Source of the DNA: a virus
Taxonomy: Duplodnaviria > Heunggongvirae > Uroviricota > Caudoviricetes
IMG/VR virus record: IMGVR_UViG_2547132272_000010
Location: 1-7,153 of that record
Length of the DNA stretch: 7,153 nt
Direction: 5' to 3' (one strand)
Positions 1-7,153 of this stretch are shown in pieces. The notes beneath the pieces were generated by a model. It worked only from the letters and a program-made list of their open reading frames with translations, was not told the DNA's origin and ran no database searches. Each line of letters begins with the position of its first letter. Position 1 is the stretch's first letter. The position numbers and the translations under genes are program-made.

Positions 1-22
1 CTAAATCAGTAAGTTGGCAGCA

Positions 23-295
23 TCACCCAATAACAGTATACTTTTTCATCACAATATCATCTTTCGAAGCATGAGAAATAATCTGGTTTGATAAAGTATA
101 CTTAAAAAATTTAGCAATATCTGGAGCGATAGGAGCTTTAATGATTTTAAAATCGAATTTATCAACAACTCTTGCGGTTCTACTCATACCCGCTTTAAGA
201 TGTCTAGTAATGAAATACAACGATATTTTCGCCGCATCATCATCCTTAAGTTGCTCAGCATACTCTAATAATTCTTCAAGCTTTAACATTTTCAT
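23..295 (-). CDS. Hypothetical 90-aa soluble protein; second gene of the AT-rich two-gene cargo operon
   Basis: ATG at 295-293 (verified), stop TGA at 25-23. Start overlaps the upstream gene stop in an ATGA arrangement (292-295), implying translational coupling. Same AT-rich composition as the upstream gene. No recognisable motif. Confidence 0.6.
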   Translation of the reverse strand: MKMLKLEELLEYAEQLKDDDAAKISLYFITRHLKAGMSRTARVVDKFDFKIIKAPIAPDIAKFFKYTLSNQIISHASKDDIVMKKYTVIG

Positions 296-906
296 TCCTT
301 ATGGGATTCAGCATAAAAAAGTTTTGGGCCCACGTCCTCAACATCAAGAAGATCATCTTCCTCCAAATACTTTGATTTAGTCAAAACCATACCAGTGCGT
401 TTTTTGTCGCTTTCTAAATCCAAATATGTAACTTGATATAAAGTATAATTAATACTTATTGTAGGATTTATAAGTATCATGCTTGAATTAATATATATTA
501 AAGCCGTTACCGTTAACAATATTGCTATTGGTATAACATTAGTTAAAGTGGATAGATCCTGAAATACAAACGGAATTATATATGTAAAAAGATAGCTTAT
601 TGATTCATTGTTTTTATTTTCAATATCTATAACTCTTACAGTTCTACCACTAGTGGCGCATCGACGTTTTATATTTTTTAAAAAAATTGTTAATCCTACA
701 ATACCAAATAATGATAATACACCAATGACACTGACCGCGCCAAAGTATTTAAAGAAAATAGTTAATGATTCAACACTTATACCTTTCCAATTTAAATAGC
801 TTCTATAAGTATACAATTGCACAAAACACATGATAAAGAATAGGGGAAGGTATGACACTATAAATAGCGAAACTCTAGCACCTAAATGTAGTTTATTTAC
901 TCTCAT
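292..906 (-). CDS. Hypothetical 204-aa integral membrane protein with four predicted TM helices and an acidic C-terminal tail; first gene of the AT-rich cargo operon
   Basis: ATG at 906-904 (verified). Hydrophobic stretches at about residues 12-32, 55-76, 102-115 and 123-147, then a hydrophilic tail rich in E/D/K. Very AT-rich codon usage unlike the neighbouring prophage genes. No catalytic motif recognised. Confidence 0.65.
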   Translation of the reverse strand: MRVNKLHLGARVSLFIVSYLPLFFIMCFVQLYTYRSYLNWKGISVESLTIFFKYFGAVSVIGVLSLFGIVGLTIFLKNIKRRCATSGRTVRVIDIENKNNESISYLFTYIIPFVFQDLSTLTNVIPIAILLTVTALIYINSSMILINPTISINYTLYQVTYLDLESDKKRTGMVLTKSKYLEEDDLLDVEDVGPKLFYAESHKE

Positions 907-1168
907 AACTACCCCACAGCCTACACGTCTAGTATTTTATGTTATTTCGAATAATTATGCATCAGATTACCATCCTACAATTGTGCATAAAACGAGCATT
1001 TTGCTGATTTTTCTGCGGATGCCTGAGACAGACAACCTCAAGCACCCGCAGCAATTCTACTTAACTCTCCTTTTCCCGCAAACCGTTTTTATCCCCATCG
1101 GCAAATCGAATACACCACCAGCGCCACCGCCATCGCAATTCCTACCGTGGTGAATGCCTCAGGCCGGG

Positions 1169-1792
1169 TCATTGATTCACCTCCTGCGGTGGTTCCGGTA
1201 GCGGCATCCAGTGAGTTGAGCTCTCTACTTCGACGCCGTCTTTGTCCACAAAAGCCATCTTATTCCCGCCACGAGTGGGGCAAAAAACCTTATCCCATGA
1301 ACCGGGGAATACATTCCCGAGATCATCGCGAAGAATCACATCGCAATATTCAGCAGGAACTGCATCACTACAGCTTATCCAGCCAGCCGGAGTTCCCGGG
1401 GAGCTGGTTGACGTTTCCGAGATTTCCCGAAAATTGTTGGTTGACGAATTCTTATTTTCCCGGAAGTTTCCGGCCTGAAGCATGGCGACGCGGCAGGCGT
1501 TCCAGCCATCAGCATATGTTTCAGTTACACCGTCGAGATGACAAGTAAGCAAATCCATTTCATCAGGCACTACCATCGCTGGCGGCGCTGCGTAAAGCGG
1601 TGTTATTTCTGCCCGAAAGTCACCTATTTCATGCAGTCGCACACACCGCTCGACTTCTGCTTTGTCAGAATACATAGTGGTGAACGTATTATATTCATTG
1701 TCAATTTGCGTGAAGGTTGCCTTCCACGCCACTGGCTCTGCTTCCAGTGATGCCAGTGCTATTTTGAATAACTCGCACTCTACCCATGCCAT
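1169..1792 (-). CDS. DUF551-domain phage protein (C-terminal ...GWIS...THWMPLPEPP motif)
   Basis: C-terminal HWMPLPEPP motif typical of DUF551 proteins in enterobacterial prophages. The ORF track extends to 1963 but that start is TTG, lacks an RBS and overlaps the 72-aa ORF; the first in-frame ATG is at 1792-1790. An N-terminal extension (to 1963) cannot be excluded. Confidence 0.65.
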   Translation of the reverse strand: MAWVECELFKIALASLEAEPVAWKATFTQIDNEYNTFTTMYSDKAEVERCVRLHEIGDFRAEITPLYAAPPAMVVPDEMDLLTCHLDGVTETYADGWNACRVAMLQAGNFRENKNSSTNNFREISETSTSSPGTPAGWISCSDAVPAEYCDVILRDDLGNVFPGSWDKVFCPTRGGNKMAFVDKDGVEVESSTHWMPLPEPPQEVNQ

Positions 1793-1874
1793 CTCTGAAT
1801 TGGGGTGACATTTCGCAACCGCTATTTTTAATTTGGCTTCTTCAATTAATTGTTCTTTGGTTAATTCAGTTATT

Positions 1875-2093
1875 TCAGTTTTCCTTATATGGATTAATTT
1901 TGTTGTGTAGCGCCCTGAATGGTTCCCATACCATATCGATATACAGTTCAACAATCGGCTCAAATATTTTTCCGATTATCCAAATCAGAAACAGCAGGTT
2001 TATCGGTATCATCAACACGATAAACAGAATGAGAAACAGAAATTCTGTTGTTCTACTCTTTCGCGGATATTTTTTTCTAAATAATGTGACCAT
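1875..2093 (-). CDS. Small (72 aa) single-pass membrane protein in an AT-rich islet; possible moron
   Basis: ATG at 2093-2091 (verified). Basic N-terminus (RKKYPRKSR) followed by a ~24-residue hydrophobic helix, consistent with the positive-inside rule. Weak RBS; AT-richness inflates hydrophobic ORFs, so confidence is modest. Confidence 0.4.
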   Translation of the reverse strand: MVTLFRKKYPRKSRTTEFLFLILFIVLMIPINLLFLIWIIGKIFEPIVELYIDMVWEPFRALHNKINPYKEN

Positions 2094-2187
2094 TCATTAC
2101 CGCCCTTTCAGGCGGCCTCCCGATGTTCTGAGGGTGCAGAAATCCCTCCGGTTAAGGATTAAATTTTATTTACAACACTAAATTTAA

Positions 2188-2742
2188 TTATTCAGGCGCG
2201 CGAATCTGTTCCGCACAATGCAACAATGCTTCTGTCACTTCCTTAAGCGTTACGGTATCGGCATCATCCAGTCCTGCAACTTTTGCGTGCCTGACAAACG
2301 CCGCGCGAAGCTCGTTAAACGCCACCGCCCGTACATCAGCCAGGAAAGCATCTGTAGCCGAGGTTTGCGGCATACCTCCGTCTGTTGCGCAGATATACGC
2401 ATCAGATAGTTCATCCTGCTCGCCATCAAACACGTAGCAACTCTGTACGATAAATTTATTCAGCTCCGCATTCTCCGCCGCAAGTGCAGCAAGATTAGTC
2501 TCCAGCTCTGCAATGCGTTTGCTTTGGGCTTCCCGTTCATCAAGCACTGCCAGCACGGTAGCCGGATTGGCTGCTGCTATGAATCGCTTATTGGCGCGAT
2601 TATCTGGTCCTGAGCATGATGCTATGTAGTAATTTGCGTTCAGTCCGGCATCAGCAATTAACCCATAATCATCAGAACACCATTCGCCAGGGGTTGCATT
2701 TTCTGCCGCCATTCGCAGTGCCTGGTAATTAATGTTGCTCAC
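2188..2742 (-). CDS. ead/Ea22-like family phage protein
   Basis: N-terminal ...[18 protein letters not shown]... resembles the ead/Ea22-like family, with a coiled-coil-like middle ([20 protein letters not shown]). The ORF-track start at 2772 is TTG; GTG at 2742-2740 is preceded by AGGAGG at good spacing and is preferred; ATG at 2712 is an alternative. Overlaps the upstream gene end. Confidence 0.65.
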
Positions 2743-3472
2743 TGGTTTCCTCCTGGCAAAGCTGGGCGACAATATCGCGATATTTATTCAGCTCCCGCAG
2801 CGCGCCACAGACTCGCTCCCATTTCCGGATATCACTTTTCGCCCGACGCAGTTCGCGGTTTGCCTGTCGCAGCGATGGCAGAACCAGATTATCCACTCGC
2901 TTCTCAAGCGGCTGCACAATGTCCGCCACAGTTTCTGTTTTAATATCTTCCTGTGTTGCAGCTTCCTGTACTGGTAACGCAACACATGCAGGCTGAGGAA
3001 AGGCTTTACCATCAGTTTCCGCTACCGATGCCGTTTTCGGCTCTGCTGGTAAATTACCGCCCGGCATGCAGTAACGAAATTTACCGTTCTGATTAACACG
3101 AATCAGACGACCTTTGCTGATTGCCATTGCCAGCGTTGAAGCCACTTTGCGGGATGTTGTACCGAACAGCGTAGCCAGTTCATCCGCCGTTTGTGATCCG
3201 CGTTGTTCAATCGTCGCGGTTAAATCGCACTCTGAGATTTTCGCTACTGTCGCCGTGGTGGTTTCTTCCGGCTGTTCTTCTGGCGCTGGCTGTTCCTGCT
3301 GAACGTTGTTATCAGCCACACGCCAGGTGTATACGCTTTTATCAACGAAGCCAGCCTTTTTCAGTTCCCACAGCTCGTTCAGTACTTCTTCACGACTGAT
3401 ATCAAGTCGCGCAGCCAGCTCTACCGACGTGGCTTTTCCCATCGCTTTCAGTGCGTCAAAAACAGTCTCCAT
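2729..3472 (-). CDS. Phage winged-helix protein, DUF1627-like (two wHTH-like segments separated by an acidic/Q-rich linker)
   Basis: ATG at 3472-3470 (verified), preceded by GGGAGG. N-terminal ...[28 protein letters not shown]... and a second HTH-like ...[28 protein letters not shown]... Family name is from memory, not a search. Confidence 0.7.
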
Positions 3473-3492
3473 AAATTTCCTCCCGGTAAAAA

Positions 3493-4239
3493 TTACTTTT
3501 CAATACCTGGCTGACCAACATTCGGGCGCCAGCTCTCCCAGTTAAAATTCACCCAGCGCCCGCCGTTCATGGTCATGCGATCCATAATCCGCTCGCCGAG
3601 CAATGTTTTCATGGCCTCATAGTTCAGGTTTGTCAGCATTCCCACGCTACGCATCGACGCTGTCCGTCGATCAATAATCTGGTGCAGTACCACCTGCTCG
3701 TTTTTCGTCTCGCGCTGAATGCCAATTTCATCAAGAACCAGCAGCTCCACTTCGCACAGTTCCCGCAAAAATTTTTCGCCTGACTGCCCGTCGTCATAGC
3801 TGGCGTGCAGGGCGCTCATAACATCAGCCACGGTAACCACAATCACTGTCTGACCGTCTTTCAGCAGGCGATTCCCGATAGCTGCCGCTAAGTGATTCTT
3901 CCCGGTACCAGGTTTTCCGCTGAATGCAAAATTTGTACACCCGGTCATCAGTTCATCGGCGATGGATTTCGCCTGGCTTAACGCGTATCGCTGGCCGTCG
4001 TTCTGCACCTGGTAATTCGCAAACGAGCATTTACGGTGCAACGGCTGGATGCCTGAGCGATTCAGAATTTTTTCCACCCGCAACTGGCGATTCAGGCGGT
4101 TGATCTCCTCGCTACGTTTCTGGCCTTCAGCAAGTTGCCACTCGCGCCACTCCGCAACCGTTCTGAATGGAGCGGTTACATGTGGTGGGGCCAGTCTGCG
4201 GATACGCTCCAGAACGCCTCCTGTCGCAATATTTTTCAT
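3493..4239 (-). CDS. ydaV: DnaC-like replicative helicase loader (phage P-equivalent), AAA+ ATPase
   Basis: 248 aa; Walker [18 protein letters not shown] (the GKN variant also found in E. coli DnaC), Walker B LLVLDEIG, and a C-terminus closely resembling DnaC (...GERIMDRM...). ATG at 4239-4237 (verified) with an upstream AGGGGG. Confidence 0.88.
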
Positions 4240-4245
4240 GGTCTG

Positions 4246-5034
4246 TTACCCCCTGAAGCCTGGCGGGATCGCACTGTCCGGCAACGAGACGGTGTTAACC
4301 TGTCGGAGCAACGTCTCAGGCCGAACACCTTTCGGCGCGAACAGGCCCTGGTATTCATTGGCGATGCTGTGTCGAATCACCTGCTCAGGTGTAAAACCCT
4401 GCTGACGGAATTTTTCCAGTTCCCGTATCGCCCCGTTAGCGCCCTGCTCCGTTCGAATCGGTTTTCGCAATGCCTGTCTGAACCGGACCCACTCATGCCA
4501 GAGTGTTTCCGGCAACCAATCGGGCAGCTCAATAGCCTCCGGCTCGAATTTTTTAGACGCTCGTTTTTGGCGAGGGGGATTTAGGGGGAGATCAGTATTT
4601 AGATCTTCCTCTTCCTCTTCCTCTGGTAACGCTTTTTGATCCGTTTGTGTAACGCCGGCAGCGTTACCTTTTCGTTTCAGTTCACGTATTTTTGTAACTC
4701 GCTCGTTTGTAACCGCCCGTTTTTTAGAGCTTTTTCCGTTATGGCGTTCAAAGTTAGGTAGAGAAAGCCCAACGTCATTTTCGACCAGCCATCCAACCTG
4801 AATTAACGCATCAGCAAAACCAGCCATAAAAGTGATGCGATCTATTGCACTTTTTGTAACGCCGCGAGCGTTACAATCTGCATTACCGTCTATCATTTGT
4901 TGATCCGCCCATGCCCAGAAGCGAATAACCTTCCCTAATGCGGCATCTGGATCAATATTCAGAATCTCAGCAAGCCTGAATATTTCCGGCTTATCCGGCG
5001 TAATAACCTCGAGCTTTATCCAGTTTGAAGCCAT
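4246..5034 (-). CDS. ydaU: YdaU-like replication initiation protein (lambda O-equivalent), two domains joined by an EEEEEE linker
   Basis: Sits between the CII-like gene and the DnaC-like loader, as O sits before P. ATG at 5034-5032 (verified), AAGGTGA RBS. Contains internal 21-bp palindromes and an acidic linker, as in ori-within-O genes. Family assignment is by synteny and memory. Confidence 0.75.
   Translation of the reverse strand: MASNWIKLEVITPDKPEIFRLAEILNIDPDAALGKVIRFWAWADQQMIDGNADCNARGVTKSAIDRITFMAGFADALIQVGWLVENDVGLSLPNFERHNGKSSKKRAVTNERVTKIRELKRKGNAAGVTQTDQKALPEEEEEEDLNTDLPLNPPRQKRASKKFEPEAIELPDWLPETLWHEWVRFRQALRKPIRTEQGANGAIRELEKFRQQGFTPEQVIRHSIANEYQGLFAPKGVRPETLLRQVNTVSLPDSAIPPGFRG
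4648..4668. repeat. 21-bp palindrome TGTAACGC-CGGCA-GCGTTAC(C), copy 1, inside the ydaU-like gene
   Basis: Read directly from the sequence. Flanked by further GTAACGC / TTGTAAC half-sites at 4626-4632, 4692-4698 and 4707-4713. Confidence 0.7.
4855..4875. repeat. 21-bp palindrome TGTAACGC-CGCGA-GCGTTACA, copy 2, inside the ydaU-like gene
   Basis: Perfect 8-bp arms; read directly from the sequence. Encodes NARGVT on the coding strand. Confidence 0.7.
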
Positions 5035-5046
5035 TTGTTTTCACCT

Positions 5047-5067
5047 TGTAACGCTCGCAGCGTTACA
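5047..5067. repeat. 21-bp palindrome TGTAACGC-TCGCA-GCGTTACA, copy 3, in the ydaT-ydaU intergenic region just upstream of the ydaU-like RBS
   Basis: Perfect 8-bp arms; lies about 13 nt upstream of the ydaU-like start codon, adjacent to the AAGGTGA RBS. Confidence 0.7.
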
Positions 5068-5111
5068 TTTAACTGATACCGAACAAAACAATCCGGCACG
5101 ATTAATTTCAA

Positions 5112-5534
5112 TCAATGCACTACGACAGAATCACCGGACGACCCACCACCGCTGAAATGTGCTTTCCGGTAAACGGCCTGGACTGCATCATCATGCGCAT
5201 CAATTGCCGTACTCAACGCTTCCTGCGCCGCCAGTAATGCACGGCGTTCCAGGGTATCGAAGATGCAGAGTCGGTGACGCAGCTCGCGCGGAAGAATTGC
5301 CAGAACCGCAGGGATCAGTGTCTGAATTTTTTCCCTTTGCGCTTTCGTTTCACCTTTTAACCAACGGTGATAGATGTTCTGCTGATTATTCCAGTCCTTG
5401 CCTGGTACCAGGGGCAATTCGCCGCCCCCCTGGCGCAGATATTCTTCAGTAATTGCATTGGCTACCCATGCCTGCCCTTTTTCAGCGGCCAGGGCTAACA
5501 GCACTGATTCGATGTGCTCATGCCTGATTTTCAT
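5112..5534 (-). CDS. ydaT: YdaT (140 aa), CII-like regulator / reported toxin of Rac-type prophages
   Basis: 140 aa, matching YdaT length; immediately downstream of the Cro-like gene and overlapping it by 17 nt. ATG at 5534-5532 (verified) with AGGAG about 9 nt upstream. Confidence 0.82.
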   Translation of the reverse strand: MKIRHEHIESVLLALAAEKGQAWVANAITEEYLRQGGGELPLVPGKDWNNQQNIYHRWLKGETKAQREKIQTLIPAVLAILPRELRHRLCIFDTLERRALLAAQEALSTAIDAHDDAVQAVYRKAHFSGGGSSGDSVVVH

Positions 5535-5793
5535 GAATCAACTCCTGTGCATTTTGTGTGTTAGCCTTACATCCAACAGGTAAACCATCGGTCGGATTCG
5601 GGTAGATATCAGGCCGGAGTTCATGAGGTGTAACCTCGAAATTCGTAGCCTCTGCGATACGCAATACCTTTTCAGGGCTTAACTGACTACGTCCAGTAGC
5701 AACGAGGCTAATCATTGATTGCGAACAACCAGCCAGCGCGGCCAAACAAGACTGTCGTACACGATTTTTTTTCAAATATTCATCTAATGTCAT
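5518..5793 (-). CDS. ydaS: YdaS, Cro-like HTH regulator (XRE/YdaS family)
   Basis: HTH segment QSCLAALAGCSQSMISLVATGRSQ and a ...TPHELRPDIYP... motif. The ORF-track start (ATG 5832) has no RBS; the in-frame ATG at 5793-5791 is preceded by AAGGTGA, so the shorter 91-aa form is called. Divergent from the repressor gene. Confidence 0.8.
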   Translation of the reverse strand: MTLDEYLKKNRVRQSCLAALAGCSQSMISLVATGRSQLSPEKVLRIAEATNFEVTPHELRPDIYPNPTDGLPVGCKANTQNAQELIHENQA

Positions 5794-5897
5794 AAGGGTC
5801 ACCTTAGTAATATTCGCCAAAATATTAACCATACTAATTTAAATGATCAATACTTATATCAGTTTGAGATTATGAGCTGTGTTCATAAGATGGTGGT
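5794..5897. promoter_or_regulatory. Divergent control region between ydaS (-) and racR (+), with two inverted-repeat operator candidates and predicted promoters
   Basis: IR1 TAATATT-N6-AATATTA at 5808-5827; IR2 TTATGA-N7-TCATAA at 5870-5888. Predicted minus-strand promoter for ydaS: -35 TTGATC (complement of 5845-5850), 17-nt spacer, -10 TAATAT (complement of 5822-5827), overlapping IR1. Possible racR promoter: TTGAGA-like -35 near 5865-5870 and TAAGAT-like -10 near 5887-5892. Confidence 0.5.
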
Positions 5898-6362
5898 ATG
5901 AGAAGAAAACGCGAAGAAATCGCATCGCCAGAAGCTACGCAGCGTCTACGCGGAATATGGGATGCAAAAAAAAGAGAGCTCAAATTGACTCAGGAGCTTG
6001 CTGCCGAGCTAATGGGCTTTGAGACGCAATCTACGGTTAGCCACTATCTCAACGGAAAGGCTCCACTTAACACTGATGCGGCATTAAAATTCGCAGTATT
6101 GCTAAGAGTTAAGCCTGAAGACTTGAGGCCTGATTTAGCTGATCTGATGAATTACGTCCGTTCATCTGGAACTTATGACGAAAGTTTCGAAGGCGAAGGG
6201 TGGCGGATGGTTAACAAGCAACAAGCTGATTTACTGGATCTTTTTGATATCCTCCCCGAATCAGAAAAAGCAAAACTAATCGAAAGGCTTAAAGGCCAGA
6301 ATGAACTCTACAAAGAAGCGTTTGAAAATATGCTGGCAGCTCAGAAACGCATGAAGAAATAG
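5898..6362 (+). CDS. racR: RacR-like prophage repressor (CI-equivalent), HTH protein
   Basis: 154 aa; HTH-like segment LTQELAAELMGFETQSTVSHYLNGK. Divergent from ydaS-ydaT, the classic Rac immunity arrangement. ATG at 5898 with stop TAG at 6360-6362, followed by an intrinsic terminator. Confidence 0.82.
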   Translation: MRRKREEIASPEATQRLRGIWDAKKRELKLTQELAAELMGFETQSTVSHYLNGKAPLNTDAALKFAVLLRVKPEDLRPDLADLMNYVRSSGTYDESFEGEGWRMVNKQQADLLDLFDILPESEKAKLIERLKGQNELYKEAFENMLAAQKRMKK

Positions 6363-6382
6363 CCCCCACTACCTCGTAACTA

Positions 6383-6407
6383 AACCGCCATCCCTGGCGG
6401 TTTTTTT
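6383..6407 (+). terminator. Rho-independent terminator downstream of racR
   Basis: Perfect 8-bp stem AACCGCCA / TGGCGGTT (6383-6390 with 6395-6402), 4-nt loop TCCC, followed by a T7 run (6401-6407). Confidence 0.85.
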
Positions 6408-6477
6408 GTCCCCTGCGCCCCCATCGCCTTACTTTTTTATCAAAAAAAACACTAAAATTTTCATTAGGATAGTACAT

Positions 6478-6540
6478 TTTTATCAACAAAATGCATATTT
6501 ATGTTGATCATCAATATGAATATAACTAATATTATTGCAG
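6478..6540 (+). promoter_or_regulatory. Putative promoter and operator for the ydaG-ydaF small-gene pair
   Basis: -35 TTGATC (6504-6509), 17-nt spacer, -10 TAATAT (6527-6532), the same hexamer pair as the predicted ydaS promoter. Inverted repeat ATCAACA-N13-TGTTGAT (6482-6508) overlaps the -35. AT-rich UP-like tract upstream. Inferred by eye. Confidence 0.35.
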
Positions 6541-6598
6541 AAGCAGCACGGCGCTGTAGGTTTTAGTTCCGCCACCCGGCGTTAAGGGGAGAGATAAG

Positions 6599-6733
6599 AT
6601 GGTGCATTACGAAGTAGTTCAGTATTTGATGGATTGTTGCGGTATCACTTACAACCAGGCTGTGCAGGCTTTACGCAGCAACGACTGGGATCTCTGGCAG
6701 GCAGAAGCCTCTATCCGCAACAACAAAATGTGA
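6599..6733 (+). CDS. ydaG: YdaG-like small protein (44 aa)
   Basis: ATG at 6599, stop TGA at 6731-6733; SD AAGGGGAG about 8 nt upstream. Translation MVHYEVVQYLMDCCGITYNQAVQALRSNDWDLWQAEASIRNNKM. Absent from the ORF track (below its size cutoff). Position downstream of racR matches Rac synteny. Confidence 0.65.
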   Translation: MVHYEVVQYLMDCCGITYNQAVQALRSNDWDLWQAEASIRNNKM

Positions 6734-6743
6734 GGTGCGAAAA

Positions 6744-6896
6744 ATGCAAAAAATCGACCTCGGCAATAACGAATCCCAGGTGTGCGGCGTGTTCCCCAAC
6801 CAGGATGGAACGTTCACCGCCATGACTTATACCAAAAGCAAAACATTTAAAACAGAAACAGGCGCACGTCGCTGGCTTGCCAGAAATACTTGCTAA
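6744..6896 (+). CDS. ydaF: YdaF-like small protein (50 aa)
   Basis: ATG at 6744, stop TAA at 6894-6896; SD GAGGTG 5 nt upstream. Translation MQKIDLGNNESQVCGVFPNQDGTFTAMTYTKSKTFKTETGARRWLARNTC. The supplied 6634..6825 ORF is in a different frame and lacks an RBS. Confidence 0.65.
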   Translation: MQKIDLGNNESQVCGVFPNQDGTFTAMTYTKSKTFKTETGARRWLARNTC

Positions 6897-7153
6897 TCCA
6901 TTATTTGGATTAATTCAATATTCTCGCTGTAGGGGTATAGCAGAAACCACCAAAGCCCGGAGGTGGTGAAATAAAACCGGGCACAACACGAAGGCGCATT
7001 TCCGATATCCATAAAGAGTCGGTCTTGTCTGTTAAATTTAAATGGTGGGAGTGCGCCTCCGGTTGTGAATAACAACACTGCTGTGTGTAGTCTTGGCGGC
7101 ATCAGTTTTTTCTTGAAGTTCGACTGATGTCCGCCCTTTTTAAAGTGAATTTT
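6893..7153 (-). CDS. 3' end of a minus-strand ORF running off the right edge; possibly a sieB-like superinfection-exclusion gene (partial)
   Basis: The reading frame is open from the window edge (7153) to stop TGA at 6895-6893, with no stop in my hand translation. Convergent with ydaF, stop codons overlapping. Identity as sieB is from Rac synteny only; the translation is not clearly protein-like. Confidence 0.3.
   Translation of the reverse strand, partial: KIHFKKGGHQSNFKKKLMPPRLHTAVLLFTTGGALPPFKFNRQDRLFMDIGNAPSCCARFYFTTSGLWWFLLYPYSENIELIQIMD

Follow-up and report, generated by a model that had tools for sequence, protein, structure and literature searches.

Two small ydaG-like and ydaF-like genes at the probable start of the early-left transcription unit of a Rac-type lambdoid prophage

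The window, that is, the whole 7,153-nt stretch of phage DNA analyzed (IMG/VR record IMGVR_UViG_2547132272_000010, positions 1 to 7,153), contains two tandem small ORFs with well-spaced Shine–Dalgarno (SD) sequences downstream of the terminator of a racR-like gene. A preliminary description of the sequence had reported such a pair, and both ORFs were found where it placed them. The genes and features of the region are listed below.

5822–5850, minus strand: predicted PR-like promoter of the ydaS (cro)-like gene (−35 TTGATC at 5850–5845, 17-nt spacer, −10 TAATAT at 5827–5822)
5898–6362, plus strand: racR-like immunity repressor gene (154 aa; N-terminal HTH_3, DicA-like C-terminal region)
6382–6410, plus strand: intrinsic terminator of the repressor gene (hairpin at 6382–6403, followed by the T-run TTTTTTTGT)
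6482–6508, no strand: inverted repeat ATCAACA-N13-TGTTGAT (arms 6482–6488 and 6502–6508, the right arm overlapping the −35 of the PL-like promoter)
6494–6518, no strand: CATATT-N13-AATATG, an alternative candidate operator dyad centred on the same −35
6504–6532, plus strand: predicted PL-like promoter (−35 TTGATC at 6504–6509, 17-nt spacer, −10 TAATAT at 6527–6532)
6514–6532: further putative dyad, overlapping the PL-like promoter
6540–6598, plus strand: predicted 5′ leader (small hairpin HP1 at 6543–6557, conserved block TAGTTCCGCCACCCGGCGTTAA at 6564–6585, SD AAGGGGAG at 6584–6591)
6599–6733, plus strand: ORF 1, ydaG-like gene (44 aa), identified by RefSeq annotation, phrog_14709 and frame-specific selection
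6744–6896, plus strand: ORF 2, ydaF-like gene (DUF1391, 50 aa), identified by Pfam PF07151, phrog_751 and frame-specific selection
6897–7081, plus strand: structured untranslated spacer with a long hairpin at about 6983–7068
7082–7141 (also given as 7082–7136), plus strand: DicF-like small RNA with a terminator hairpin and T-run (Rfam DicF)

The SD sequence of the ydaG-like ORF was separated from its ATG by 7 nt. The ydaF-like ORF starts with an ATG at 6744; an alternative in-frame GTG at 6735 would extend the product to 53 aa. The SD sequence of this ORF, GAGGTG (6732–6737), overlaps the ydaG stop codon. Both genes are annotated in RefSeq in a 98.8%-identical genome (RM11911) and in K-12 (ydaG and ydaF), and the ydaG-like protein had 93% identity with K-12 YdaG. 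The two ORFs are thus genuine prophage genes, conserved and previously annotated as ydaG and ydaF/DUF1391; both belong to named families and they are not new. They were indeed missing from the ORF track, as had been noted before: its default minimum length of 60 aa drops genes of 44 and 50 aa, and the only ORF passing it here was an out-of-frame one of 63 aa (6634–6825). The lesson for annotation is that this cut-off conceals two conserved prophage genes and substitutes a spurious ORF for them.

We analyzed the variation of both genes in related loci, one of the checks that the preliminary description had proposed. The pN/pS ratio was low only in the annotated frames: 0.18 for ydaG, against 1.4 and 0.68 in the other two frames, and 0.14 for ydaF, against 3.2 and 2.5. 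Frameshifts and stops were not scattered through these frames in homologous prophages, an intact ORF being present in 81 of 82 related loci for ydaG and in all 105 for ydaF; the out-of-frame 63-aa ORF was interrupted in most relatives. The 10-nt gap between the genes was retained in 69 of 77 loci. The coding signal of both ORFs is clearly beyond chance, and purifying selection acts on them in a frame-specific manner, at the protein level.

It could still be argued that the ORFs, one or both of them, encode no functional protein and are conserved as parts of a long untranslated or leader RNA feeding the DicF-like RNA and kilR; in a variant of this explanation, ydaG might be only an upstream ORF serving translational coupling. 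Relatives of ydaG are confined to Escherichia prophages, and an exhaustive HMMER search of 1.84 billion representative proteins for distant YdaG homologues gave only close Escherichia relatives and spurious repeats. Identity was 89–95% with the listed full-length Escherichia proteins, 80% with one divergent member and lower for two partial matches. The third-position excess in ydaG was weak (7, 9 and 13 variable sites at the first, second and third codon positions, respectively), alternative first cistrons stand in for ydaG in some relatives, and neither protein has a known function. All this would fit a non-protein role, but the frame-specific pN/pS values do not, nor does the retention of the pattern QYLMD...QALR.N.WD in a ydaG homologue with only 41% identity (locus L067). 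Conservation of DUF1391 extends to phages of Salicola, Pantoea and Serratia, with identities as low as 55%, both proteins have compact predicted folds, confident for their size, and both ORFs are preceded by strong, well-spaced SD sequences. We consider a non-protein role very unlikely and treat ydaG and ydaF below as protein-coding genes.

YdaG matched phrog_14709 over its full length (124.5 bits, E = 2.7e-36, positions 1–44 of 44). It also scored 23.7 bits (E = 4e-5) with the Pfam family UBA_4 (PF14555), above the cut-off (gathering score) of 21.8, and K-12 YdaG scored 24.1 bits; the 41%-identical homologue had no UBA_4 match. The AF2 model consisted of three helices (pLDDT 73), and its top Foldseek matches in the PDB were UBA-like (HYPK, the N-terminal domain of EF-Ts, NAC and p47), all with E > 0.9. 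A PDB sequence-profile search with YdaG gave no match. YdaG looks UBA-like, with three predicted helices. The pair of cysteines pointed out earlier is present as C13–C14 and is not conserved: C14 is replaced by Y in several variants and C13 by S in a divergent homologue.

YdaF scored 96.6 bits with PF07151 (DUF1391; cut-off 27.3, profile positions 1–47 of 48) and matched phrog_751 (E = 4e-34). We found 287 homologues, every one of which contained PF07151. The AF2 model of YdaF had a small beta-beta-beta-alpha fold (pLDDT 81). Fold searches gave no match at E ≤ 0.001 for either protein against the PDB or for YdaF against BFVD, and functions assigned to these proteins are therefore guesses. By analogy with other early-left lambdoid products, YdaG and YdaF are most likely small accessory proteins binding host or phage partners. 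The beta-beta-beta-alpha core of YdaF resembled, with non-significant scores, domains in several phage proteins labelled “HNH endonuclease” and the N-terminal domain of lambda Int. The label “head-DNA stabilization protein D”, attached to DUF1391 in some phage records, is supported by neither Pfam nor PHROGs and is regarded here as a mis-annotation, and the plasmid “ydfA” of PMC12111858 is an unrelated gene bearing the same name.

DUF1391 occupies a promoter-proximal position in the early-left operon, beside the repressor gene, in the window, K-12 Rac, Qin, mEp460 and Serratia phage OS31, as well as in 105 IMG/VR loci. Because they are widespread and hold the slot of lambda gene N, YdaG and DUF1391 pose a modest puzzle in lambdoid phage biology.

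The gene preceding this pair encodes a repressor with a Pfam HTH_3 domain (E = 6.5e-9), residues 105–154 of which matched the NCBIfam DicA model; it is annotated as a helix-turn-helix protein in RM11911. A promoter-like sequence, TTGAGA-16-TAAGAT, ends 6 nt before its ATG, and the repressor mRNA may be leaderless, here and in CP-933P. The terminator of the gene has a 9-bp stem (5 G–C pairs) and a 4-nt loop.

The preliminary description had proposed that ydaG and ydaF have their own promoter, TTGATC-N17-TAATAT, with hexamers identical to those of the ydaS promoter. The identity of the hexamers was confirmed: the two promoters have in common not only the hexamers but also the extended blocks TTGATCAT (8-mer) and TAATATT (7-mer) at a 17-nt spacing, located on the minus strand at 5850–5843 and 5828–5822, respectively, on the ydaS side. 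Repressor types B, C and D all retain both blocks. The true start of the ydaS-like gene (MTLDEY, 91 aa as in RefSeq) is at 5793, so that the −10 on this side lies upstream of the gene. Homology with K-12 Rac starts only at 6563, a mosaic joint downstream of the ydaG promoter; the promoter therefore belongs to the immunity module. Its hexamers are invariant in three related immunity types, and the switch proteins that act on the ydaS promoter probably control it too, a possibility that the preliminary description had raised.

The possibility that ydaG and ydaF have no promoter of their own and are transcribed only by readthrough of the repressor-gene terminator, TTGATC-N17-TAATAT being a chance match in AT-rich DNA, deserves consideration, since the sequence is weak against the sigma-70 consensus (8/12) and was left unlisted by a scan with a 9/12 threshold. 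About one site of this kind is expected in 194 nt so rich in AT; in 6405–6598, three were observed against 0.9 expected from shuffles. Nevertheless, TTGA and TAATAT did not vary among 33 unique sequences from three repressor types, whereas the spacer and flanks did, and equivalent promoters occupy the same place in K-12 Rac (TTGACA-N17-TATAGT, 11/12), Qin (dicBp) and mEp460. Readthrough is opposed by the good terminator between the repressor gene and ydaG and by the behavior of K-12, where a fall in the racR transcript is accompanied by a rise in ydaG and ydaF, contrary to what co-transcription would give (PMC6765115). A chance match with readthrough is thus very improbable. TTGATC-N17-TAATAT is best read, from its sequence, as a lambda-PL-like promoter, with a predicted start of transcription near 6539–6540. 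It lies past the 3′ end of the repressor gene and points away from it, toward the kil, recombination and int genes; position and orientation are those of an early-left promoter, and activity is predicted.

The inverted repeat described earlier over the −35 is present; its significance did not hold. Dinucleotide shuffling of these 194 nt produced an inverted repeat with 7-bp arms and a spacer of up to 20 nt in 30% of cases. In type-C relatives, the outer arm positions 6–7 vary without compensation; type D lacks the left arm, and the closest sister immunity type does not have the repeat. We rejected this repeat as an operator on the grounds of its frequency in shuffles and the lack of compensatory changes. 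Taken alone, neither the promoter nor the repeat is significant; comparison among relatives supports the promoter but not the repeat. The core CATAT-N15-ATATG of the alternative candidate dyad was retained in all type-C and type-D sequences.

We searched the two control regions, 5796–5900 and 6406–6545, for exact dyads (arms of 5–6 bp, spacer up to 14 nt) and found none common to both. In K-12, which served as a control, the same search gave TAGGC-N3-GCCTA in both control regions; these dyads flank the K-12 Rac promoter and recur in the racR–ydaS intergenic region, which is bound by RacR (PMC5700373). The only k-mers common to the two control regions of the window were the promoter blocks and the 8-mer ATGAATAT, the other copy of which is located inside the ydaS coding sequence. 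Nine other immunity types, counting the positive controls K-12 Rac, Qin and seven more, had type-specific 8–14-mers common to OL and OR. The CP-933P operator consensus GTTTAGTAA was not enriched in the window. These searches identified no operator for this immunity type; the segment 6470–6540 is the place to seek the left one.

The leader contains a block, TAGTTCCGCCACCCGGCGTTAA, found downstream of at least seven repressor types and upstream of at least four alternative first genes in IMG/VR loci. The whole leader was no more stable than its shuffles (z = +0.8), and an Rfam search of 6533–6598 gave no match. In the RNAalifold consensus of a MAFFT alignment, only the invariant CCC (6575–6577) was paired, with the GGG of the SD sequence. 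HP1 recurs with four different sequences across leader classes, a weak signal (combined p ~0.03), and HP2 (6570–6581) has C-G, U-G, U-A and G-G variants without consistent compensation. There is a slim chance that the conserved block of ~45 nt is a functional RNA element, beyond a recombination joint and ribosome-binding site, acting with YdaG and/or DUF1391; it could be an SD-sequestering switch (CCC 6575–6577 with the SD) or a 5′ stabilizing hairpin. If so, the leader and YdaG/DUF1391 would control the translation of kilR-recET-int, or readthrough into them past the DicF-type terminator, a protein-plus-RNA control of early genes distinct from N/nut and HK022 put.

The same data bear on another explanation, in which ydaG and ydaF act with the leader hairpins and the DicF-type terminator in antitermination, N/nut-like or other, the small proteins allowing RNA polymerase to continue into kilR-recET-xis-int. 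It is suggested by the location of the genes, first after PL as gene N is, of the conserved leader at the position of nutL, and of an intrinsic terminator between ydaF and kilR. In mEp460 and Serratia phage OS31, too, DUF1391 heads the early-left genes, with no N annotated in the inspected stretch. On the other hand, no N homologue, arginine-rich protein or nut site in the lambda or P22 sense was found after the promoter of the window, and neither YdaG nor YdaF has an arginine-rich N-terminal motif. The leader had no boxA or boxB match, its hairpins are of only 4–5 bp, and the absence of an Rfam match, the stability no better than that of shuffles and the behavior of HP1 and HP2 speak against it as well. 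Antitermination of this kind is extremely unlikely.

Downstream of ydaF, the fold of 6897–7153 was much more stable than expected (z = −4.4; none of 200 shuffles was as stable), and the spacer was ~97% identical to the sieB–kilR gap of K-12 Rac. The DicF-like RNA scored 42.8 bits (E = 6e-7) with the full-length Rfam model RF00039, under the gathering score of 48; its 3′ hairpin and flank align clearly with Qin dicF, and the 5′ part differs. In RM11911, kilR is located ~180 nt downstream of this RNA, and genes on the same strand continue from kilR to intR in this 98.8%-identical genome.

Altogether, the repressor-controlled early-left (lambda-PL-like) transcription unit of this Rac-type lambdoid prophage very probably starts in this region, with ydaG-ydaF as the head of a long early-left operon rather than a self-contained two-gene unit. 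The repressor gene would end at its own terminator (6382–6410), and a sigma-70 promoter ~95 nt beyond it, a near-copy of the divergent ydaS/cro-like promoter, would start a transcript near 6540. This transcript would begin with a conserved leader of roughly 60 nt, followed by two translationally coupled small genes, ydaG (UBA-like) and ydaF. The structured spacer and DicF-like RNA would come next; the hairpin and T-run would halt part of the transcripts, and the rest would read through into kilR, ydaE, racC, recE, recT, ralR, xis and int, all beyond the window. In the lysogen, the immunity repressor, and possibly the Cro-like YdaS, would shut the promoter via overlapping sites, as at lambda OL/PL. 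The original observation is correct but ordinary, because both ORFs are already annotated genes opening such an operon. Its importance outside annotation is slight; the genes are now placed as the first cistrons of an operon in which a DicF-type RNA and the genes for the division inhibitor KilR and RecET recombination follow.

In lambda, the position and orientation of PL/OL relative to the repressor gene are the same, the promoter is likewise a paralogue of PR, and the operon extends to xis and int by way of kil-type and recombination genes. The window differs in that a three-operator array was not found and the first genes encode proteins of 44 and 50 aa. In CP-933P of E. coli O157:H7, PL933P is located past the operon of the CI-like repressor; its −35 and −10 hexamers are the same as in the divergent PR, and it is repressed ~100-fold by PaaR2 (CI-like) and YdaS (Cro-like) (PMC8630535). 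CP-933P differs in repressor specificity and in the paaA2-parE2 toxin–antitoxin pair after the repressor gene, which is absent from the window.

K-12 Rac contains orthologous ydaG-ydaF genes (b1355, b4527), and its DNA is ~95% identical from 6563 on, with the same order racR, ydaG, ydaF, the same leader and SD sequences and the same 10-nt intergenic gap. Depletion of RacR in K-12 raises ydaG and ydaF ~40-fold and also raises kilR, racC, recET, xisR and intR (PMC6765115, PMC11014345, bioRxiv 10.64898/2026.09.06.749655). The immunity of K-12 Rac is different: the 154-aa repressor of the window and the 158-aa RacR have unrelated sequences, and the promoter/operator DNA differs. The leader is ~170 nt long in K-12 Rac versus ~60 nt in the window, and sieB, present between ydaF and the DicF-like RNA in K-12 Rac, is absent from the window.

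The DicA-repressed dicB operon of Qin (dicBp-ydfA-ydfB-ydfC-dicF-dicB-ydfD) has a homologous leader, CAGTTCCGCTACCCCAGCGTTAAGGGGA, followed by a DUF1391 gene. The order is the same: repressor gene, sigma-70 promoter with repressor sites, leader, DUF1391, further small genes, a long structured spacer, a DicF-type RNA with terminator and a cell-division inhibitor gene (PMC10448788, PMC5069750). DicA repression of this early-left promoter is documented, and transcription of the operon begins upstream of ydfA and gives rise to DicF (PMC10448788). In contrast to the window, Qin has DUF1391 (ydfA) as the first gene, and the two genes after it, ydfB and ydfC, bear no relation to ydaG; cell division is inhibited by DicB instead of the KilR of the Rac-type operon, and the RNAs differ in the 5′ single-stranded part, that of the window being the one scoring under the Rfam gathering threshold. 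The viable phage mEp460 has the promoter–leader–DUF1391 layout of Qin and the window, and the same promoter–leader–gene layout recurs in many immunity types.

The end of the window is the immunity region of a Rac-type lambdoid prophage of E. coli, with a repressor of type C, one of three related immunity types (B, C, and D). The following features were recognized in it:

5112-5534, minus strand: ydaT-like gene
5832 (start of the mechanical ORF, 104 aa), minus strand: ydaS/cro-like gene; likely true start, ATG 5793 (RefSeq, strain RM11911)
5898-6362, plus strand: helix-turn-helix repressor gene, 154 aa
6382-6403 and T-run, plus strand: clean intrinsic terminator 3' of the repressor gene, followed by an AT-rich spacer
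6504-6532, plus strand: predicted PL-like (left) promoter, TTGATC (6504-6509), 17-nt spacer, TAATAT (6527-6532)
6599-6733, plus strand: ydaG-like ORF, 44 aa; Shine-Dalgarno (SD) sequence AAGGGGAG at 6584-6591
6744-6896, plus strand: ydaF-like ORF, 50 aa; SD GAGGTG at 6732-6737, overlapping the ydaG-like stop codon
6897-7081, plus strand: structured untranslated spacer with a long hairpin (about 6983-7068)
7082-7136 (feature to 7141), plus strand: DicF-like RNA, hairpin and T-run

Both small ORFs are genes. A 774-nt query (6380-7153) matched 1925 complete E. coli records; in the best of them, strain RM11911 (98.8% identity), RefSeq annotates both ORFs, as a 44-aa hypothetical protein and a DUF1391 protein. 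Their counterparts in K-12 MG1655 are the 44-aa ydaG product (only 'phage protein' in the RefSeq record) and ydaF. Substitution patterns were analyzed in 124 loci: 119 IMG/VR loci fetched via a conserved leader word, the window, and four earlier loci. Pairwise pN/pS for ydaG was 0.18 in the annotated frame versus 1.4 and 0.68 in the other frames; for ydaF it was 0.14 versus 3.2 and 2.5. Frameshifts and stops were not scattered among the homologues: the ORF was intact in 81 of 82 loci for ydaG and in all 105 for ydaF, and the 10-nt gap between the genes was kept in 69/77 loci. The 63-aa ORF (6634-6825), the only one listed here at the 60-aa cut-off, is out of frame with both genes, as had been pointed out, and is broken earlier in most relatives. 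The preliminary description was correct in its finding of two genes with SD sequences and essentially right in its interpretation. The CC pair it mentioned in the first protein was not conserved. Both genes were already annotated and belong to named families.

The YdaF-like protein matched Pfam DUF1391 with 96.6 bits, and DUF1391 homologues with 55-65% identity were found in Pantoea, Serratia, and Salicola phages. When 1.84 billion representative proteins were searched exhaustively, YdaG turned up only in close Escherichia relatives; a homologue with 41% identity (locus L067) retains the QYLMD...QALR.N.WD pattern. Both proteins fall in PHROG families of unknown function. YdaG passed the cut-off of Pfam UBA_4 (23.7 bits, cut-off 21.8); its predicted structure was a three-helix bundle (pLDDT 73), and UBA-like domains headed its fold matches, none of them significant. 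YdaF was predicted to form three strands followed by a helix at the C-terminus (pLDDT 81); the structural search gave no significant match. From position and size, our guess is that the two serve the early-left operon as small accessory proteins that bind partners, comparable to Ral, Kil, and CIII of lambda. The label 'head-DNA stabilization protein D', given to DUF1391 in GenBank phage records ON470595, ON470614, ON470616, ON470580, PV340562, and ON470583, is supported by neither Pfam nor PHROGs and looks like a propagated mis-annotation.

Judged from the sequence alone, the evidence for the left promoter was weak: 8 of its 12 hexamer bases agree with the sigma-70 consensus, a 9-of-12 scan did not list it, and the AT-rich 194-nt spacer contains three matches at 8/12 versus 0.9 in shuffles. 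Comparison of relatives supports the predicted promoter much better. Across 33 distinct sequences of types B, C, and D, no change was seen in TTGA of the -35 or in any base of TAATAT, against variation in the spacer, in the flank upstream, and beyond the -10; the promoter on the ydaS side, in the divergent intergenic region, showed the same pattern. The proposed identity of hexamers between the two promoters was also borne out, as the blocks TTGATCAT and TAATATT recur on the minus strand upstream of the ydaS-like gene (5850-5843 and 5828-5822) with the same 17-nt spacing. Both -35 hexamers carry a GATC Dam methylation site (6506-6509 and 5845-5848); the related locus L024 has lost it from the two promoters together (TTGATT and TTGATA), and the type B left promoter has TTGACT.

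K-12 Rac, whose repressor is different, is homologous only from 6563 onward, and type B from 6525, indicating that the promoter moves with the immunity module, and that the leader and the two genes form the next module. The recurrent breakpoints in megablast matches illustrate, within a short stretch, how modules are exchanged at the borders of genes and signals. They lay at 6525 (the -10, type B), 6563 (leader block start, K-12 Rac), 6753 (ydaF start, relatives lacking ydaG), and 6922-6942 (after ydaF).

An operator of this immunity type was not evident: apart from the promoter blocks, the two control regions had a single 8-mer in common, and the CP-933P repeat consensus was not enriched. The inverted repeat reported over the -35, ATCAACA (6482-6488)-N13-TGTTGAT (6502-6508), is present, but a repeat of this type is expected in 30% of shuffles, arm positions 6 and 7 vary without compensation among type C relatives, and the left arm is absent in type D. 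The dyad CATAT-N15-ATATG around the -35 (6495-6518) and the spacer block ATATGAATAT are both kept in types C and D, the latter unusually for a promoter spacer; they are only candidate operator elements.

The layout is that of the well-known lambdoid early-left control region, for which there are direct experimental precedents, and is not novel. In K-12 Rac, TTGACA-N17-TATAGT occupies the equivalent position, flanked by TAGGC-N3-GCCTA dyads; the dyad is found two more times between racR and ydaS, an intergenic region in which RacR binds palindromic repeats (PMC5700373). Lowering RacR raises ydaF and ydaG about 40-fold, together with kilR, ydaE, racC, recET, ralR, xisR, and intR (PMC6765115, PMC11014345, bioRxiv 10.64898/2026.09.06.749655). 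In CP-933P, the hexamers of PL933P and PR933P are identical, the same observation as in the window, and PL933P is repressed about 100-fold by the CI-like PaaR2 and the Cro-like YdaS (PMC8630535). Nine further immunity types, including that of the viable phage mEp460, have type-specific words of 8-14 nt common to the leader-upstream and divergent intergenic regions; Qin is one of the nine (dicBp, TTGACC-N17-TAATCT, with TGTTAGTCAT repeats). DicA represses the Qin polycistronic transcript, which starts from dicBp upstream of ydfA (DUF1391) and from which DicF is released by processing (PMC10448788).

In RM11911, the same strand continues downstream with kilR, ydaE, a racC pseudogene, recE, recT, ralR, a DUF1187 gene, xisR, and intR. 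Together with the structured spacer and the DicF-like RNA, this indicates that ydaG and ydaF are the first cistrons of an early-left operon, not an isolated pair; its counterparts are lambda PL and the Qin dicB operon. The fold of 6897-7153 was far better than that of shuffles (z = -4.4), and the spacer with its hairpin could be a site of RNase III-type processing, of the kind described in the Qin dicF precursor. K-12 has sieB inserted on the opposite strand just upstream of this spacer block. The DicF-like RNA scored 42.8 bits in Rfam (E 6e-7), below the gathering score of 48. This paralogue lies between ydaF and kilR and also occurs in K-12 Rac (L002, about 3530-3600), where no RNA gene is annotated. 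It has the 3' hairpin, the T-run, and some 60 nt beyond them in common with Qin dicF (L124, about 5830-5900), whereas the 5' single-stranded part is GCUGUGUGUAGUCU versus UUUCUGGUGACGUU in Qin; therefore, its targets may differ. By analogy with Qin (PMC10448788), some of the transcripts probably stop at the DicF-type terminator, and readthrough would reach kilR and beyond.

The leader between the promoter and ydaG (6540-6598) contains the block TAGTTCCGCCACCCGGCGTTAA (6564-6585), which with close variants was found downstream of at least seven repressor types and ahead of four or more alternative first genes (ydaG or a divergent ydaG, a 100-aa protein, or directly DUF1391), as well as in Qin and mEp460. 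Across 244 IMG/VR loci (L005-L244), the TAGTTCCGCCACCCGGCGTTAAGGGGA leader block and variants were common to prophages with many repressors and different first genes. It takes in the ribosome-binding site, with which the C-run 6575-6577 is able to pair, and the 5' hairpin (6543-6557) is replaced in other leader classes by three other hairpin-forming sequences (combined p ~0.03). RNA-structure tests gave weak results; a dedicated regulatory RNA is improbable, and the block could be just a joint at which modular lambdoid genomes recombine.

The mechanical ydaS-like ORF of the minus strand starts upstream of the predicted -10, while the product from 5793 (MTLDEY..., 91 aa) has AAGGTGA before its ATG. 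The C-terminal 50 residues of the repressor match the DicA model (NCBIfam NF007257, positions 85-134). No peptidase S24 domain was found in the repressor, making induction by RecA-mediated self-cleavage unlikely; an antirepressor may be needed, as in Qin. Its gene has a promoter-like site of its own, TTGAGA-16-TAAGAT (5864-5891, plus strand), which ends 6 nt before ATG 5898, so the repressor mRNA may be leaderless, like those reported for lambda cI and paaR2 of CP-933P. Between these hexamers lies a dyad, TTATGA-N7-TCATAA (5870-5888), with arms conserved and spacer variable in types C and D.
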